Part shown: positions 2,226 through 29,078 of the stretch, one piece after another
Numbering within the stretch: position 1 is the first letter of the stretch
How the letters are laid out: each line of letters opens with the position of its first letter
Assembly: GCA_015486105.1 (NCBI GenBank)
Contig: WFSI01000033.1
Location: forward strand, 1-51,041
Direction: 5' to 3'
Length of the DNA: 51,041 nucleotides
Origin: Aquificota bacterium
GTDB lineage: Bacteria; Thermosulfidibacterota; Thermosulfidibacteria; Thermosulfidibacterales; B14-G1
Position numbers and translations under genes: made by a program
Notes under the pieces: generated by a model
The model's input: only the letters and a program-made list of their open reading frames with translations
Database searches by the model: none
What the model was told of the DNA's origin: nothing

Positions 2226-3047
2226 TCACATGGCAGAGTAACTGTGGAGGCCGGGAAGAAGCAAGTTAACCCCTAAGAATGTGAAGAGGACAGCTCCAAA
2301 GCCTATGACAGAAAGGATGGCTGCCCTTCTCCCCTGCCATCCAACAGTCATCCTTCCGTGGAGTATAGCGGCGTAGATGAGCCAGGTTATTAGGGACCAG
2401 GTCTCCTTGGGGTCCCAGCTCCAATAGGAACCCCAGGCATACTGGGCCCATATGGCACCGGTAATTATACCCAGGGTGAGAAAGGGAAATCCTAAGGTGA
2501 GGAGCCTGTAATTGAGATCGTCCAGTTGGCTGAGGGAAGGGAGCTTTTGGAAAAGGCCTCCCAGTTTCTTCTTTCTGATGTAGCGTTCCTGAATGAGATA
2601 CACAAAGCTCACCACAAAGGCCAGGGCAAATGCCCCCTCTCCTAAAAAGGATGTGGCAGCATGGATGTATAGCCATGTGCTTTTCAGAGCTGGAGGCAGG
2701 GGACTGATGGCTTGGGGGTTAAGGGTAGCAATCAGGACACCCAGGGAGTTCAGAGGGGCTACAAAAGAGCCCAGTATAGGAATCTTGTAACGCCACTCTA
2801 ACAGGAGATATCCCCCAGCTATCATCCAAGAGAATAGAGAGAGAGACTCGAATAGGTTGGTGGCAGGAAAGTGTTGAGCTATTAGACCCCGCACCGTCAG
2901 GGCTACGGTGTGAAGTATGAACCCGATAAAAAGCAGGATGTAGGCCTTTTGGGAAATAGCCTCCTTGGTCCGGTATAGATAGTATACATATAGAGCGGCC
3001 GAGGCCAGGTAAAAGACGGCGGCTAATCTGAAAATGATTATATCCAT
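2226..3047 (-). CDS. CcsA/ResC-family cytochrome c assembly (HemX-like) membrane protein
   Basis: 273-aa polytopic ORF with the Trp-rich motif WGSYWSWDPKETWSLITWL typical of CcsA/CcmC heme-handling proteins. It sits upstream of hemA, as hemX-like genes do. Confidence 0.8.
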   Translation of the reverse strand: MDIIIFRLAAVFYLASAALYVYYLYRTKEAISQKAYILLFIGFILHTVALTVRGLIAQHFPATNLFESLSLFSWMIAGGYLLLEWRYKIPILGSFVAPLNSLGVLIATLNPQAISPLPPALKSTWLYIHAATSFLGEGAFALAFVVSFVYLIQERYIRKKKLGGLFQKLPSLSQLDDLNYRLLTLGFPFLTLGIITGAIWAQYAWGSYWSWDPKETWSLITWLIYAAILHGRMTVGWQGRRAAILSVIGFGAVLFTFLGVNLLLPGLHSYSAM

Positions 3048-12733: not shown

Positions 12734-12838
12734 CCTGAAATGTCGAGGAGGGAGCGATTTAGGTCGTTCCCTCCCTTAATCTGTGAATTTTAGGGGGCTG
12801 TGGGAAAGGCCCCGAAGAGGGATTCTGTGGGCGGGAAT

Positions 12839-13654
12839 ATGTTTGGAATAGGGGAAATCGAGCTATTTGCCATAGATCTGGATGGGGTAGTTTATAGGGG
12901 CGACAGGGTCCTTCCAGGTGCTCCATCCTTTATCTCTCAAATAAGGGGTATGGGTAAATCCTTGGTCTTTGTCACCAACAGCACCTTGAGACCCAAAGCT
13001 TACTATGTTTCTAAGCTTGAATCCATGGGGATACCCGTGATACCCCAAGAGATACTTACCGCTGCCCACGCCACGGGCAGGTATTTGAAGAGATGCTTCG
13101 ACGGTGCCTCCCCCACTATCTTCCTTTTGGGTGAAAGGGGGCTTGAGGAGGAACTGGAGTATCTGAAGCCCCGTTATCTTTCTTTCCAGGATGATGAGGT
13201 GGCCCAAGCGGTGGTGGTGGGCCTGGACCGCAAGATAAACTATAGAAAACTGTGCAAGGCCGTGAGGGACGTTATGGAAGGCGCCCTTTTCATAGGGGTG
13301 AATGGTGATCCTCTGTGGCCTGTGGAGGACGGTTTCATGCCTGGGGTAGGGGTTTTTTTGTCGGCTATCAGGGAGGCTACTGGGGTGGAGCCCTTCATTG
13401 TTGGCAAGCCTAACACTTACATGTTGGAGTTGGCCATTAAGGTCTATGGATGCACACCTTCCCAGGTACTCATGATAGGAGACAAGCTGGACAGCGATAT
13501 CATGATGGGCAATAGAGTAGGGGCCAAAACAGCCCTGGTACTCTCGGGGGTCACTTCCCCTGAAGAGCTGAAAGAAGCTCCAACGGATATGCAGCCCTAC
13601 ATAGTAGCCAGGGATCTGGCCCATCTGGAGGATATTCTCTTTTACTCCGAGTAG
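12839..13654 (+). CDS. HAD-superfamily subfamily IIA phosphatase (NagD-like)
   Basis: ORF 12800..13654 with HAD motif I (DLDGVVY) and motif IV (GDKLDSDI). Start placed at ATG 12839 (MFGIGEIELFAIDLDG). Confidence 0.8.
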   Translation: MFGIGEIELFAIDLDGVVYRGDRVLPGAPSFISQIRGMGKSLVFVTNSTLRPKAYYVSKLESMGIPVIPQEILTAAHATGRYLKRCFDGASPTIFLLGERGLEEELEYLKPRYLSFQDDEVAQAVVVGLDRKINYRKLCKAVRDVMEGALFIGVNGDPLWPVEDGFMPGVGVFLSAIREATGVEPFIVGKPNTYMLELAIKVYGCTPSQVLMIGDKLDSDIMMGNRVGAKTALVLSGVTSPEELKEAPTDMQPYIVARDLAHLEDILFYSE

Positions 13655-14013
13655 GTGGCCCGTGCCTTTTCTGATTCCCATACGGTTACTTCTTTTACCC
13701 GGATTCCAGGGTAAATCCTTAGGGTTTCTTCCATCTCCTTGAAGATAAAGAAGGCCAGGTTCTCAGAGGTAGGGTTTCTTCCCTGAAAGTAGGGTAACTC
13801 GTTCAAGAAGGTGTGATCCAGACCATTGAGAATGAAGGATAGTGCGCCTTTTATATCCTTGAAATCCAGGAGAAGGCCCTGATCGTTAAGCTCATTCCCC
13901 TCCACCGCCACCTCTACCCGCCAGTTATGGCCATGGAGCCTTTCGCACTGGCCCTTGTACTTCCTTAACTGGTGGGCCGATGCGAAACTATCTCTTACCG
14001 TTAGCCTGAACAC
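13642..14013 (-). CDS. queD: 6-carboxy-5,6,7,8-tetrahydropterin synthase
   Basis: 123 aa with the CERLHGHNWRVEV motif (Cys plus HGH zinc site) typical of QueD/PTPS. Confidence 0.9.
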   Translation of the reverse strand: MFRLTVRDSFASAHQLRKYKGQCERLHGHNWRVEVAVEGNELNDQGLLLDFKDIKGALSFILNGLDHTFLNELPYFQGRNPTSENLAFFIFKEMEETLRIYPGIRVKEVTVWESEKARATYSE

Positions 14014-24312: not shown

Positions 24313-25401
24313 CTAATCATCAAAGTAAGGGGGCATACATTCCTCCCAAGCCACCTCCTCTACCAAATCAACTAAAGCCTCCAGAGCTTCCTCCATACTT
24401 ACTTTAGCAACAACCCTCCCTTTTGCAAAGAGAATAGCTCCCTTCCTTCCTCCTGCCATACCCACATGGGCTTCTCGGGCTTCACCAGGACCATTCACCC
24501 CACACCCCATAACGGCAACCTTCAGAGGAACCTTAACATGGTCCAGCCTCTCTCTCAGAGCCTCCACCATGGAAATAAGATCCCACTCACAACGACCACA
24601 AGTAGGGCACGAGATGATCTCCACCTTATCCCTCCTCAAACCCAGGGACCTAAGAATCTCTAAACCTACCTCCACCTCCTGCTCGGGGTCCCCTGTCAGA
24701 GAAATCCTGAGGGTATCACCAATACCCTGGGCAAGGAGAATAGATAGACCCGCTACAGACTTCACAACACCTGGTCTCCCTGCACCTGCCTCCGTCACTC
24801 CCAGATGAAGGGGGTAGTCCCGAAGATGGGAAAAGATCTCGTAAGCCTCCACCGTCTCCATTGCCCCTGAAGCCTTCAGAGAAACCTTCATCTCCAAATA
24901 GTTCATATCCTCCAGAAGGATCACATGCCTTAAGGCGCTTTCCACCAAAGCCCGGGGATGGGGACCACCGTACTTATCAAGAATATCCTTCTCCAAGGAA
25001 CCGGTATTGACCCCTATGCGGATGGGTACCATCCTCTCTCGAGCCGCTTCCACTACCTCTTTCACCTTCCACTTAGCACCAATGTTCCCCGGGTTGATCC
25101 TCAAACCATCCACCCCAGCCTCCAAAGCAGCTAAGGCTAAGCGATAATCGAAATGGATGTCGGCCACCAGGGGAACCTTCAAGGCCTCCTCATAAAGGGA
25201 TAACCTGCCCGCTGCCTCTTTGTCTGGAACGGCCATACGAATTATCTCACAACCTACCGCCTCCAGCCGCCTGGCCTGTTTCAAGGTAGACTCCACGTCT
25301 CGGGTGTCTGTCTTGGTCATGGACTGGACAGACAGGGGAGCCTCCCCTCCTACATGCACCTCCCCCAGTTTAATCATACGGGTCCTTCGCCTCACCATCA
25401 T
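24313..25401 (-). CDS. ispG: 4-hydroxy-3-methylbut-2-en-1-yl diphosphate synthase
   Basis: 362 aa with a TIM-barrel N-domain and the CPTCGRC plus GCGVNGPGE 4Fe-4S domain. Confidence 0.92.
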   Translation of the reverse strand: MMVRRRTRMIKLGEVHVGGEAPLSVQSMTKTDTRDVESTLKQARRLEAVGCEIIRMAVPDKEAAGRLSLYEEALKVPLVADIHFDYRLALAALEAGVDGLRINPGNIGAKWKVKEVVEAARERMVPIRIGVNTGSLEKDILDKYGGPHPRALVESALRHVILLEDMNYLEMKVSLKASGAMETVEAYEIFSHLRDYPLHLGVTEAGAGRPGVVKSVAGLSILLAQGIGDTLRISLTGDPEQEVEVGLEILRSLGLRRDKVEIISCPTCGRCEWDLISMVEALRERLDHVKVPLKVAVMGCGVNGPGEAREAHVGMAGGRKGAILFAKGRVVAKVSMEEALEALVDLVEEVAWEECMPPYFDD

Positions 25402-25488
25402 AGCCCTCCTTTTCTAAAGGATAGAAGGGGCCTTTTCCAGTCCCCCTTTTTGGCATAGACTCTTTTAATCAGACCAAGGAGGGTAAAG

Positions 25489-26679
25489 ATGAACAGAATA
25501 GATGGAGGAATAACGGCTCCCAAGGGCTTCATAGCAGGGGGTTTATGCTGCGGCATAAAAAATGGCGTTTCAGACTTAGGCATTCTGGTTTCCCAAGGAG
25601 AATCATCGGCAGCGGGCACTTTCACCACCAATCTGGTTAAGGCAGCACCTGTCTTAGTCTCATCCCAACAAATCTCACGAGGCAAAAACCGGGCCGTTGT
25701 GGTGAACAGCGGAAATGCCAATGCCTGCACAGGAGAGAGAGGAATGAAAGACGCCTGGCAGATGGTCGAGGAAACGGCAGCCACCCTAAGGATAAACCCC
25801 CAAGAGGTCTTGGTATGCTCCACGGGAATCATTGGAGAACCCCTGCCCATAGATAAGATAAAAAAAGGAATACATGAACTGGGTCCCCAGCTATCCCCCA
25901 AAGGAAACAAGGCCTTCGCCCAGGCCATCCTCACTACCGATAAGAACACCAAAGAAGTTGCCTTAGAGGTTCCCACATCCCAAGGCACCTTCAGGGTGGG
26001 AGGAGCAGCCAAGGGAGCGGGCATGGTCCACCCCCACATGGCCACCATGCTTGCCTTCATCACTACGGACCTGGAAATAGTCCCCCCTACCCTCCAAAGA
26101 TGTCTAAAAGAAGCGGTAGAACTCTCCTTCAACCGCATCTCTATAGACGGCGACACCAGCACCAACGACACAGCCTTGATTCTCGCCAACAGTGCCTCAG
26201 GGCTCAAAGGGGAAGGAAAAAACCTCCAGGCCTTCCAGGAAGCCATAAAAGAGGTGTGTAAGACCTTAGCCTCCATGATGGTAAAAGACGGAGAAGGAGC
26301 CACTAAGGCGGTCAAAATAATGGTAAAGGGTTCCTCCTCCCCCAAAGATGGAGAAAAGGCAGCTAGAAGATTGGCCAACTCCCTTTTAGTGAAGACAGCC
26401 CTCTACGGCGAAGACCCCAACTGGGGGAGACTTATGGCTGCCTTGGGGTCCTCAGGATGCCTGGTAGATCCCTTGCGAGTAAAGGTATGGATAGGGGACA
26501 CCCAAGTGGTTCAGGGTGGAGAGGGTATGCCCGGTGCAGAAGAAAAAGCTCACAGGATTATGAAACAGAGGGGATACACCATAACCCTGGATTTGGGCTT
26601 AGGGTCCCATGAATATTGGATATGGACATGCGACCTCAGCTACAATTACATCCGTATAAACGCCGAGTACAGGAGCTGA
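25489..26679 (+). CDS. argJ: bifunctional ornithine acetyltransferase / N-acetylglutamate synthase
   Basis: 396 aa with the autoprocessing site region HMATMLAFITTD and a C-terminal DLSYNYIRINAEYRS. Confidence 0.92.
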   Translation: MNRIDGGITAPKGFIAGGLCCGIKNGVSDLGILVSQGESSAAGTFTTNLVKAAPVLVSSQQISRGKNRAVVVNSGNANACTGERGMKDAWQMVEETAATLRINPQEVLVCSTGIIGEPLPIDKIKKGIHELGPQLSPKGNKAFAQAILTTDKNTKEVALEVPTSQGTFRVGGAAKGAGMVHPHMATMLAFITTDLEIVPPTLQRCLKEAVELSFNRISIDGDTSTNDTALILANSASGLKGEGKNLQAFQEAIKEVCKTLASMMVKDGEGATKAVKIMVKGSSSPKDGEKAARRLANSLLVKTALYGEDPNWGRLMAALGSSGCLVDPLRVKVWIGDTQVVQGGEGMPGAEEKAHRIMKQRGYTITLDLGLGSHEYWIWTCDLSYNYIRINAEYRS

Positions 26680-26685
26680 GGCAGG

Positions 26686-27678
26686 TCATTTCTCCTGGAT
26701 AGTCTCCTCTACCTTCATACCAAAGTGACGGCCCCCCTTTTCCCCATGGACCAAAACCCTGTCCCCAGGCTGAAGCTTCACTACAGACATGGGTTCTCCC
26801 TGGGGAGACACCAAGCGGATGGTCTCAGCGTTCTGGAGGATACAGCTCCCCTCCATATCTCCCACCTGGGCCTTCACCAGAAGGAGAGGCCTCCTCTCTA
26901 CTTTGGCCCTACCCACCAAACCAGACTTAGCTTCGCCCCTGTAGTCCACCAGCAATACCTCGTCCCCTGCCTGAAGCTCCGAGAGGTACCGACTCCTACC
27001 CTCAGGAATCAGAGTATAAGCATGGACTGCCCCCGCATTGACCCGGAATGGTCGGGGAGACACATACGGGTTCTCTATACTCTCAGCATGAACAAGGAAA
27101 AGGAAGGCACTGGAGTTGCCCACCAACATCCCTTCCCCCTTACCCATAAGGGTACAGGTATCTACACAAACACGATCTCCCAACCCTAAAGGCCTCACTT
27201 CCCGGATAACAGCCTCTGCCAATTCCACTCTTCCCCCCTCCTCCCGAACCATGAGGACCATCTCCCTCAAAAGGCCTGGATCATCTACATCTATCACTAC
27301 CCCTCCCACACCCTTCTCCAAGACCCCCAGGGCCATAGCCATCTCCTCTCTGGCCCTGACCACGGCAAAGACCTCGTCCGAAGCAGCTACCAGGTTTTCT
27401 AAAGGGATAACCTGCCAGTCAGTAGCCTCCACCACAACCAAACCCTTGTGGGCTAAGGTTAACGCCTCCTCCTGATCTTCCCCAGAGGAGATAACCACAG
27501 GGAAAAAATCCTTTCCAGGCTCCAAGTCCCCTCCTTCACCTAACACCTTCACCCTACCCAACTCCCTCACCTTGGATGCCGCTGCCTCCTCCACCCAAAC
27601 CCCATGGGCCCCTGCCTCCAGGGCAGTAGTGATCAGATCCTTCCTGTAAGGAATCACCCTCACCCAGACCTCTTTCAA
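26686..27678 (-). CDS. aroB': 3-dehydroquinate synthase type II (archaeal-type, AroB')
   Basis: 330 aa. It is collinear with my recollection of the Methanocaldococcus MJ1249 family ([62 protein letters not shown]). Confidence 0.85.
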
Positions 27679-28466
27679 CGCAACACCCCCAGTGCTTCCT
27701 CCAGGGACGCACCTTTGTGAACCAAGAGAGAAATGGCTTCCACCATCTTATGGGGATTGGAATGCTGAAAGACGTTTCTTCCAATAGAAACACCAGCACC
27801 CCCAGCATCCATAGCTCCCTTCACCATGACCAGCACATCCTCATCTGTGTCCATCTTCTCTCCACCCGCTATGAGCACAGGAACAGGGCATCCATGGGTC
27901 ACTTCCTGGAAACTCTCAGGATCACCCGTATAGGGTACTTTCACCAGATCAGCCCCCAACTCCGCCCCCAAACGAGCAGCGTGTTTCACCACTGCCACGT
28001 CGTAAGGGTTCTCGATCTTGGGTCCACGAGGATAGACCATGGCCAAAAGAGGCATACCCCAATCCAAACAACTGGACGCCACTCGGCCAAAGTCCCTAAG
28101 CATGGTCTTCTCATCTGGGGCCCCAATATTAACATGGATAGAAACAGCATCGGCCCCCAGCTTTATGGCCTCCTCCACGGTACACACCAGCACCTTACAG
28201 TTGGGGTCCTGGGCCAAGGCTGTACCGGCGGAAAGGTGAATGATGAGACCTATATCCTCTCCCCCTCCCCGGTGTCCTACAGCCACCATGCCCTTGTGCA
28301 ACACCACGGCATTAGCCCCTCCCTGGGCCACGGCATTTACCATCTCCTTCAGGGTGGTAAGACCCTTAATGGGCCCCACTGTAACCCCATGGTCCATAGG
28401 AACAACCACTATGGTCCCTTTGGCCCTATCCATGATTCTTTCCATGCGAATGGTCTTACCTATCAT
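27675..28466 (-). CDS. aroA': 2-amino-3,7-dideoxy-D-threo-hept-6-ulosonate (ADH) synthase, DhnA-type class I aldolase (AroA')
   Basis: 263 aa. It is very similar to my recollection of the MJ0400 family ([57 protein letters not shown]). It overlaps aroB' by 4 nt. Confidence 0.85.
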
Positions 28467-28472
28467 GAGTCA

Positions 28473-28522
28473 CCTCCTAAAAATTAGGGCCGAGGGTTGG
28501 GGTCCCACGGCCCTAAGGGAGG
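28473..28522 (-). promoter_or_regulatory. second leader hairpin plus potential anti-SD/SD pairing in front of aroA'
   Basis: Minus-strand RNA reads CCUCC-C-[UUAGGGCCG-(15 nt)-CGGCCCUAA]-UUUUU-AGGAGG-UGACUC-AUG. The 9-bp hairpin spans 28516..28484 and is followed by U5. The CCUCC at 28522..28518 is complementary to the SD at 28478..28473. Confidence 0.45.
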
Positions 28523-28562
28523 AAAAGAAAAAGGGCCATGGACTTCTGCCTGCCCACGGCCC
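28523..28562 (-). terminator. intrinsic-terminator-like hairpin (segments 3:4 of the aro leader attenuator)
   Basis: Minus-strand GGGCCGUGG (28562..28554), a 12-nt loop, then CCAUGGCCC (28541..28533). This is 9 bp including one G-U pair. UUUUUCUUUU follows immediately, about 57 nt upstream of the aroA' ATG. Confidence 0.6.
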
Positions 28563-28573
28563 CCTTGTCTAAA

Positions 28574-28675
28574 CTACAAACCGGGAGACCTCTTAGGCAG
28601 GCCCCACCAGTAATAAAACCAAAACCAGCTATACTCGCTATATGAAATCCCTCTCCTACTCATGAGCCTACTCAT
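28574..28675 (-). CDS. aromatic-rich leader peptide (33 codons) of the aroA'/aroB' operon
   Basis: My own translation of the minus strand gives MSRLMSRRGISYSEYSWFWFYYWWGLPKRSPGL*. ATG 28675 is preceded by GAGGGGGG. Ten of 33 codons are aromatic, with 8 consecutive (28627..28604). The ORF is too short for the supplied ORF track. Confidence 0.6.
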   Translation of the reverse strand: MSRLMSRRGISYSEYSWFWFYYWWGLPKRSPGL

Positions 28676-28841
28676 ACCCCCCTCAAAACCCCTTGTCAAG
28701 AAAACCCCCCAAAATTCTCCCTAAGTTTTTGAAGTTCTAGTGGACAGGATATCCCCCAAGTATTTTTCTAACTCTTCGAGACCTAATCCTTCTCCAGCCC
28801 TATACTGGAAAGAGACATGGAAGGGTATTATTATCCCGAAA

Positions 28842-29078
28842 ATGAGGAAAAGAGACTGGATCAAGGTCTATAATGCCCAAGGAACAGCTGAGGCCCATAT
28901 AATAAAGGGGCTGTTGGAATCCAGTGGTATACCAGTATCCTTAGACTATGAGGCAGTGGGCTCTCTCCTGGGCCTCACCACCGATGGATTGGGGGAGATT
29001 GGTGTTTTAGTGCCTATTCAATGGGAGAAAGTGGCCCGAACCCTTCTCGATCAAGAGGAAAGCGAAAAAGAACCCTGA
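28842..29078 (+). CDS. small DUF2007-like protein (putative signal-transducing domain)
   Basis: ORF 28740..29078 with a probable start at ATG 28842. WIKVYNAQGTAEAHIIKGLLESSGIPV resembles the DUF2007 fold signature. Confidence 0.5.
   Translation: MRKRDWIKVYNAQGTAEAHIIKGLLESSGIPVSLDYEAVGSLLGLTTDGLGEIGVLVPIQWEKVARTLLDQEESEKEP

Follow-up and report, generated by a model that had tools for sequence, protein, structure and literature searches.

What occupies the gap between the start codon of aroA' and the divergent gene beside it, and does it tell how a bacterial operon with archaeal-type enzymes of aromatic amino acid synthesis is controlled? The locus belongs to an Aquificota bacterium (contig WFSI01000033.1 of assembly GCA_015486105.1), of which a stretch of 51,041 nt, hereafter the window, was analyzed whole; it carries aroA', for 2-amino-3,7-dideoxy-D-threo-hept-6-ulosonate (ADH) synthase, and aroB', for 3-dehydroquinate (DHQ) synthase II. 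The leader region, 28700..28467 on the minus strand, lies between a divergent DUF2007-like gene and the aroA' ATG at 28466. A sequence-only reading had placed there a Trp/Phe/Tyr leader peptide with attenuation of the trp/phe/his type, and this core claim is supported here by conservation of the open reading frame (ORF), by covarying stems and by folding energies. As judged from the sequences, the element is very probably a ribosome-mediated transcription attenuator that governs aroA'-aroB' by reading the charging of tRNA-Trp, tRNA-Phe and tRNA-Tyr jointly. Computation showed the ORF and its conservation, as well as helices that exclude each other and covary; that transcription really terminates and that it responds to the supply of amino acids are predictions.

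All the features listed by the sequence-only reading between 28700 and 28467 were found at their positions on the minus strand. The frame running from ATG 28675 to UAG 28576..28574 translates as MSRLMSRRGISYSEYSWFWFYYWWGLPKRSPGL, with 4 Trp, 2 Phe and 4 Tyr. The conserved part of this frame and its aromatic run are the following:

28574..28663, minus strand: leader ORF MSRRGISYSEYSWFWFYYWWGLPKRSPGL, 29 aa, from the conserved ATG 28663 to UAG 28576..28574
28604..28627, minus strand: regulatory run W-F-W-F-Y-Y-W-W, its conserved core WFWFYY at 28627..28610

This run is the sole window of eight aromatic residues in eight within the 51 kb. A 15-aa stop-free segment without a start codon, FPYGYFFYPDSRVNP, is aromatic at six residues in eight; it lies near 13675 on the plus strand, just past a plus-strand ORF at 12800..13654, and is probably due to chance.

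Each of the 12 contigs from close relatives (AroA' identity 75-91%) has an ORF with an aromatic run at the matching place; the core is WFWFYY, WYWFYF or WFWFYF, and the N-termini differ in sequence and length. In an alignment of 16 sequences all five variable columns of the 18-nt core yield Phe or Tyr codons only (TTT/TTC/TAT, TAT/TAC and TAC/TTC/TTT), the changes being synonymous or between Phe and Tyr; by expectation, only 8 of 54 single-nucleotide changes in the core would keep an aromatic residue. Moreover, we scanned one genome per species, which yielded 80 aroA' loci (63 bacterial and 15 archaeal ones used in the run test), and searched at most 400 nt upstream of aroA' for a segment free of stop codons in which eight consecutive residues include six or more aromatic ones. 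Such a segment was found at 47 of the 63 bacterial loci and at none of the 15 archaeal loci, the background in the remainder of the same loci being 0.005 per 400 nt. The leader peptides diverge between clades (FYFWYFSYFYFYAKGLPVR, WFYYGYFYYFYATGLPVAR, FNFYWFYYALVYPLRLADR) yet remain rich in W/F/Y. The expectation that the small ORF and its run would be conserved in relatives was thus borne out, both in the close contigs and in the bacterial loci at large.

A covariance model built on the family, R1, gave one strong match per leader-bearing locus, always just upstream of aroA', with a single match in the window and no match in the archaeal loci or in the loci lacking a leader. Scanning metagenomes with a strict DNA pattern returned seven true copies, each directly upstream of aroA', plus two chance matches, and neither the window nor about 500 kb of loci contained a copy of the element upstream of any other gene. 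The hosts include many bacteria of the sulfate-reducer type; they are Desulfobacterales, Syntrophales-like lineages, other Thermodesulfobacteriota and metagenome-assembled genomes (MAGs) labelled Aquificota or Thermodesulfobacteriota.

Two aroA' paralogues of one complete Thermodesulfobacteriota genome (L019 and L020 in our numbering of related loci) and about 15 other bacterial loci have no aromatic leader and no R1 match, and must therefore be regulated in another way. A repeated or mobile element was also considered and discarded: GGGCCGTGG recurs in the window only as one intragenic copy.

Downstream of the run the RNA can be divided into segments that pair in alternative ways:

28599..28611, minus strand: segment 1 (ACUGG-U-GGGGCCU), 5' strand of the 1:2 hairpin
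28577..28602, minus strand: segment 2, comprising GCCUGCCUA (28602-28594), GGUCUCC (28590-28584) and GUUUG (28581-28577), partner of segment 1 or of segment 3
28548..28571, minus strand: segment 3, comprising UAGAC, GGGGGCC and UGGGCAGGC, the 3' strand of the antiterminator and also the 5' arm and loop of hairpin 1
28523..28566, minus strand: hairpin 1 (3:4), stem 28566..28529, with the U-tract UUUUUCUUUU at 28532..28523, first predicted terminator

The four segments of the sequence-only reading (GGGGCCU at 28605..28599, AGGUCUCC at 28591..28584, GGGGGCCGUGG at 28564..28554 and CCAUGGCCC at 28541..28533) are present as written. Its 2:3 helix, GGUCUCC:GGGGGCC, stands and is too short: the antiterminator has three stacked helices, namely GCCUGCCUA (28602-28594) with UGGGCAGGC (28556-28548), GGUCUCC with GGGGGCC, and an apical GUUUG with UAGAC. 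The leader stop UAG (28576..28574) sits in its apical loop. An H-type pseudoknot of GCCUGCC with the loop of hairpin 1 was rejected, the nested three-helix antiterminator accounting for the same pairs without steric strain.

Local energies were -16.5 kcal/mol for the 1:2 hairpin (28611..28580), -25.1 kcal/mol for hairpin 1 (28566..28529) and -32.1 kcal/mol for the antiterminator (28602..28548). The antiterminator loses only when 1:2 also forms, 1:2 plus 3:4 reaching -41.6 kcal/mol, and with the 5' part of segment 1 covered it is ahead of hairpin 1 by 7 kcal/mol. We also folded a transcript ending after the U-tract of hairpin 1 with a 28-nt ribosome footprint masked. The minimum free energy (MFE) fold was the antiterminator when the A-site lay at F20 or Y21, and hairpin 1 when the ribosome was at the stop codon or the RNA was free. 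Pairing 2:3 can thus compete with 3:4, as had been supposed. Hairpin 1 followed by TTTTTCTTTT was the only terminator-like site found by a consensus scan in 1.8 kb.

The weight of the evidence rests on comparison, since the fold z-score of the whole region, -1.6, is unremarkable by itself; for an RNA with two stable states it also carries no information. In 47 family members the antiterminator, formed by the segment after the run with the 5' arm and loop of hairpin 1, is paired in 88.8% of cells, against 22-55% for slid controls and with 0 of 500 shuffles as high, and 8 of its 11 pairs have changed on both sides. On the same columns hairpin 1 is 98.1% paired in the 47 sequences, again with compensatory changes at 8 of 11 pairs. 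Variant pairs of the antiterminator include GUCUGCC/GGCAGAC, GUCUACCC/GGGUAGAC and GUCCGCCC/GGGCGGAU. Within the close clade, helix A of the antiterminator is 99.3% and helix B 94.8% paired, and locus L010 carries two compensatory changes, from GCCUGCC/GGCAGGC to ACCCGUCC/GGGCGGGU. For the 1:2 hairpin the paired share in 16 relatives is 83.9%, and at four of its pairs both sides have changed; in Desulfobacterales segment 1 is located upstream of the aromatic run instead. The U-tract of hairpin 1 is degenerate in L001, L004 and L009. The compensatory changes bear out the earlier claim that stems 1:2, 2:3 and 3:4 are conserved. Codon run, terminator, antiterminator, 1:2 hairpin and stop position, the classical features of an attenuator that a sequence can reveal, were all found.

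Between hairpin 1 and aroA' there is a second hairpin, and a further pairing connects the two:

28479..28516, minus strand: hairpin 2 (5:6), stem 28516..28484, -21.4 kcal/mol, with U5 at 28483..28479, second predicted terminator
28504..28542, minus strand: 4:5 hairpin, UCCAUGGCCCU (28542-28532) with AGGGCCGUGGG (28514-28504), proposed second antiterminator

The second hairpin and its U5, already noticed at 28516..28479 by the sequence-only reading, were confirmed, with stem and U-run kept in all close relatives. The majority of the distant family members also have two hairpin-plus-U elements, both on a GCCGYGG box; in most of the family a second hairpin reads GCCGUGG...CACGGC followed by U. 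The 4:5 pairing joins the 3' arm of the first hairpin to the 5' arm of the second at -19.2 kcal/mol, compared with -21.4 kcal/mol for hairpin 2, and it forms when the antiterminator is enforced and the transcript ends at 28500, before segment 6. It is 93.2% paired in 16 relatives with two compensatory pairs, figures that are confounded by the likeness of hairpins 1 and 2, and it is available across the family at a mean of -15.2 kcal/mol. At L006 segment 4 has C in place of A, a change for which segment 5 compensates (C-G) and segment 3 does not. A 4:5 relay linking hairpin 1 to hairpin 2 (1:2, 3:4 and 5:6 versus 2:3 and 4:5) seems slightly favored, because the attenuator would be of no use if a strong terminator directly ahead of aroA' escaped regulation. 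Segments 1 to 4 of the device originally proposed stand, and hairpin 2 would belong to the switch through 4:5, making six segments.

In four Desulfobacteraceae loci (L026, L029, L038 and L064) the second terminator is separated from aroA' by an additional spacer, about 200 nt long, that folds strongly.

Upstream of the ORF two boxes were recognized, whose function as a promoter is predicted from sequence:

28694..28699, minus strand: -35 box TTGACA, the same in 13 of 14 close relatives and always 17 nt ahead of TAnnAN
28671..28676, minus strand: -10 box TATGAG, with T1, A2 and A5 kept and G or A at the last position; it encloses ATG 28675

An in-frame ATG stands exactly 7 nt past the -10 box in 11 of 13 close relatives, with no space for a Shine-Dalgarno (SD) sequence. 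Since this spacing is conserved and leaves no such room, we consider it probable that transcription starts at or next to ATG 28663 and that the 29-codon ORF is translated as a leaderless message; our confidence is held at a moderate level because the -10 box lacks the usual final T. The start proposed earlier, ATG 28675 behind the SD-like GAGGGGGG, had to be given up, as it is not conserved (five relatives, L004, L005 and L015-L017, have ATT there) and falls within the spacer and the -10 box of the conserved promoter.

At L010 the aromatic leader is directly preceded by a tRNA gene (2637..2710) and lacks the TTGACA promoter of the other relatives; this leader may be co-transcribed with the tRNA, or another promoter may be used.

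The mechanism that we propose would run as follows. Transcription would begin at or beside AUG 28663 from TTGACA-17-TATGAG, and the 29-codon ORF would be read as a leaderless message. With plentiful aromatic aminoacyl-tRNAs the ribosome would pass W-F-W-F-Y-Y-W-W, reach UAG 28576 and sit on segment 2, so that 3:4 (hairpin 1 and its U-tract) and 5:6 (hairpin 2 and its U-tract) could form and transcription would terminate before aroA'. Untranslated RNA should also terminate, because 1:2 plus 3:4 beats the antiterminator. A ribosome stalled in the middle of the run would instead cover the 5' part of segment 1 and leave GCCUGCCUA free; the three-helix antiterminator would then engage hairpin 1 through its complete 5' arm; the 3' arm, thereby set free, would pair with the emerging 5' arm of hairpin 2, and with the second terminator disabled the polymerase would enter aroA'.

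Several results weigh against this attenuator, or against parts of it. The evidence consists of sequence comparison and computation only. Covariation within the close clade is thin, most columns being invariant. The antiterminator result for F20 and Y21 in the window is limited to the transcript ending after hairpin 1; when the ribosome mask was applied to 47 relatives the full-length MFE fold retained hairpin 1 at almost any ribosome position, and a truncated-transcript proxy discriminated poorly; neither was used as support. These folds fail to discriminate because the terminators are thermodynamically dominant and the G+C-rich segment 3 always finds a partner; on this analysis the decision has to be made kinetically, as it is in classical attenuators. 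As for the relay, the full fold with the antiterminator enforced still slightly favors hairpin 2 over 4:5 (-54.9 versus about -51 kcal/mol), and L001 has an A.G mismatch in 4:5. The consensus promoter scan did not list TATGAG, because this -10 hexamer ends in G/A and not in the canonical T. Finally, the leader of L006 (2813..2970, about -187 to -31 before aroA') has GTATCC instead of GTAG and so lacks the usual stop.

The L006 ORF extends through hairpin 1 into hairpin 2, which is at odds with the attenuator model; the missing stop may reflect an error in sequencing or a variant of the mechanism.

Could the same conservation have arisen without a stalling ribosome? An RNA-binding protein of the TRAP or PyrR kind, or a small molecule, might read the GCCGYGGGCAG boxes, the aromatic ORF being incidental. 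In hairpins 1 and 2 the GCCGYGG(GCAG) boxes are indeed kept in sequence, beyond pairing, across orders, as such a reader would require; their conservation is, however, explained by the double partners of each segment (2 with 1 and 3, 3 with 2 and 4, 4 with 3 and 5, 5 with 4 and 6). The ORF also has a conserved in-frame start and a conserved stop, its substitutions are aromatic-only, and between clades the nucleotides of the run change completely while the residues stay W/F/Y. Rfam gave no leader family (Trp_leader, Phe_leader, His_leader, Leu_leader, Thr_leader or another) among the matches at E<=10 for 28300..28900, and at 15 related loci it gave only tRNA and group II intron matches. We regard control by a protein or ligand as very unlikely. 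A functional aromatic-rich micropeptide, co-transcribed with aroA' and followed by hairpins that are ordinary structural or stability elements, would account for the conserved aromatic core and for the frequent ending G-L-P-x-R. Yet the N-terminus and the length vary freely, two intrinsic terminators are predicted between ORF and aroA', and the profile hidden Markov models of NCBIfam and Pfam gave 0 families at E<=10 for six peptides. The 'GLP' codons are moreover replaced (GDPS in L010, VYP in L046) at just those positions whose pairing partner in the RNA changes too; because the variant pairs change in step, 'G-L-P' after the run is, as the sequences read, conserved through RNA constraint and not through peptide constraint. 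A micropeptide of this sort is extremely unlikely.

Control might also be mainly translational, through access to the SD of aroA' or through an action of hairpin 2 on initiation. The site concerned, kept in the close-relative alignment and assigned by reading the sequence, is:

28471..28478, minus strand: aroA' Shine-Dalgarno sequence AGGAGGUG

Hairpin 2 ends 6 nt before this SD, and in some folds UCCU (28523-28520) pairs with AGGA (28478-28475), both of which fit an effect on initiation. In the MFE fold, though, the SD is unsequestered, and both hairpins carry U-tracts typical of intrinsic terminators. CCUCC, which the sequence-only reading had taken for an anti-SD forming a further translational layer, is missing from L001 and L007 and varies in the other relatives, and that layer was rejected. 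Mainly translational control is accordingly a very improbable account, and we keep to transcription attenuation by a ribosome reading the aromatic run.

How does such an attenuator relate to known ones? Multivalent attenuators exist in ilvGMEDA (Ile/Leu/Val) and thr (Thr/Ile), where, as here, one leader peptide integrates several amino acids of a shared pathway, with other amino acids and other operons. In mycobacteria, leaderless cysteine-rich upstream ORFs act as attenuators in which a small regulatory ORF without an SD stands at the 5' end of the transcript; the aroA' leader would resemble them in this respect, to judge by its promoter-ATG spacing. The his attenuator of Salmonella and E. 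coli, as Johnston et al. reportedly described it in 1980, has six segments A-F, with A:B, C:D and E:F in termination versus B:C and D:E in read-through. The chain of 1:2, 3:4 and 5:6 versus 2:3 and the putative 4:5 follows the same logic. The codons sensed here are, however, aromatic and not His, and while only E:F terminates there, hairpin 1 also has a U-tract here, in the window and in the majority of the distant relatives.

Attenuation of the trpL/pheL type, with segments pairing as 1:2, 2:3 and 3:4 and with 3:4 as the intrinsic terminator, is summarized in PMC11802643. The aroA' leader shares with E. coli trpL and pheL (Rfam Trp_leader and Phe_leader) the short ORF, tandem codons of the regulated amino acid, the 1:2/2:3/3:4 arrangement and a stop codon placed so that the terminating ribosome blocks segment 2. 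In contrast to them it has codons for three amino acids and two terminators, targets the archaeal-type entry enzymes of the common pathway instead of a terminal branch, shows no sequence or covariance-model similarity, and occurs in different host lineages. The nearest precedent found is the aroR leader upstream of aroF in Corynebacterium glutamicum (Neshat et al. 2014), which as described in PMC11802643 has Phe-Tyr-Phe and no Trp codons and responds to Phe, not to Tyr. Both are mixed-aromatic leader peptides before the first enzyme of the common aromatic pathway; unlike the aroA' leader, aroR controls a classical 3-deoxy-D-arabino-heptulosonate 7-phosphate synthase in Actinobacteria, a comparison made by that description only. 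A literature search, subscription journals being outside its scope, found no description of an aroA'/aroB' leader.

We put forward, tentatively, that the leader is the founding example of an undescribed and widespread RNA family of the bacterial archaeal-type aroA'/aroB' genes, in which a leaderless ORF would read all three aromatic aminoacyl-tRNAs at once, with a conserved GYCUGCC:GGCAGRC antiterminator core and two genuine intrinsic terminators joined by the 4:5 relay. If true, the his-type chain would have here a variant with two terminators, one not known from any leader-peptide attenuator. What appears new from the sequences is the unusual hosts and the unusual pathway step and, secondarily, the leaderless leader ORF and the relay control of two terminators. 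Leader-peptide attenuation would be extended to lineages and to a pathway entry point for which no report was found. Because expression seems coupled to how fully each of the three tRNAs is charged, the element would also provide regulatory evidence that the bacterial ADH-synthase and DHQ-synthase-II genes serve the synthesis of Trp, Phe and Tyr. With a 29-codon ORF and six RNA segments it is a compact conserved switch that may show how one ribosome stall relieves two tandem terminators, and its small ORF was overlooked by gene callers in all the relative contigs examined.

The operon behind the leader consists of two overlapping genes:

27675..28466, minus strand: aroA', ADH synthase, NCBIfam NF005556 at 404.5 bits (cut-off 241) and TIGR01949 at 359.6 bits
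26686..27678, minus strand: aroB', DHQ synthase II, NCBIfam NF002627 at 477.3 bits over its full length (cut-off 392)

The stop TGA of aroA' shares bases with the TTG start of aroB' in a TTGA overlap (27675..27678, minus strand), which suggests translational coupling of the two genes. The order aroA'-aroB', convergent argJ, then ispG is common to the window (24313..28466) and to L001 and L004, the closest relatives; the upstream neighbors vary among relatives, and the leader always accompanies aroA'.

Two Phycisphaerae loci, L067 (1423..1555) and L072 (2240..2378), have aromatic-rich leader ORFs before aroA' (…FYFWFYF… and …FYFGYWFWFYY…), each followed by a single unrelated terminator (GCCUUUCAGGG…CCCUGAAAGGC and U), and R1 gives no match there; they may represent an aromatic attenuator that evolved independently upstream of aroA'. 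Near the aroA' locus of the Phycisphaerae MAG, L067 also carries an Rfam match to group II intron D1-D4-6 (2695..2822, minus strand, 55.7 bits).

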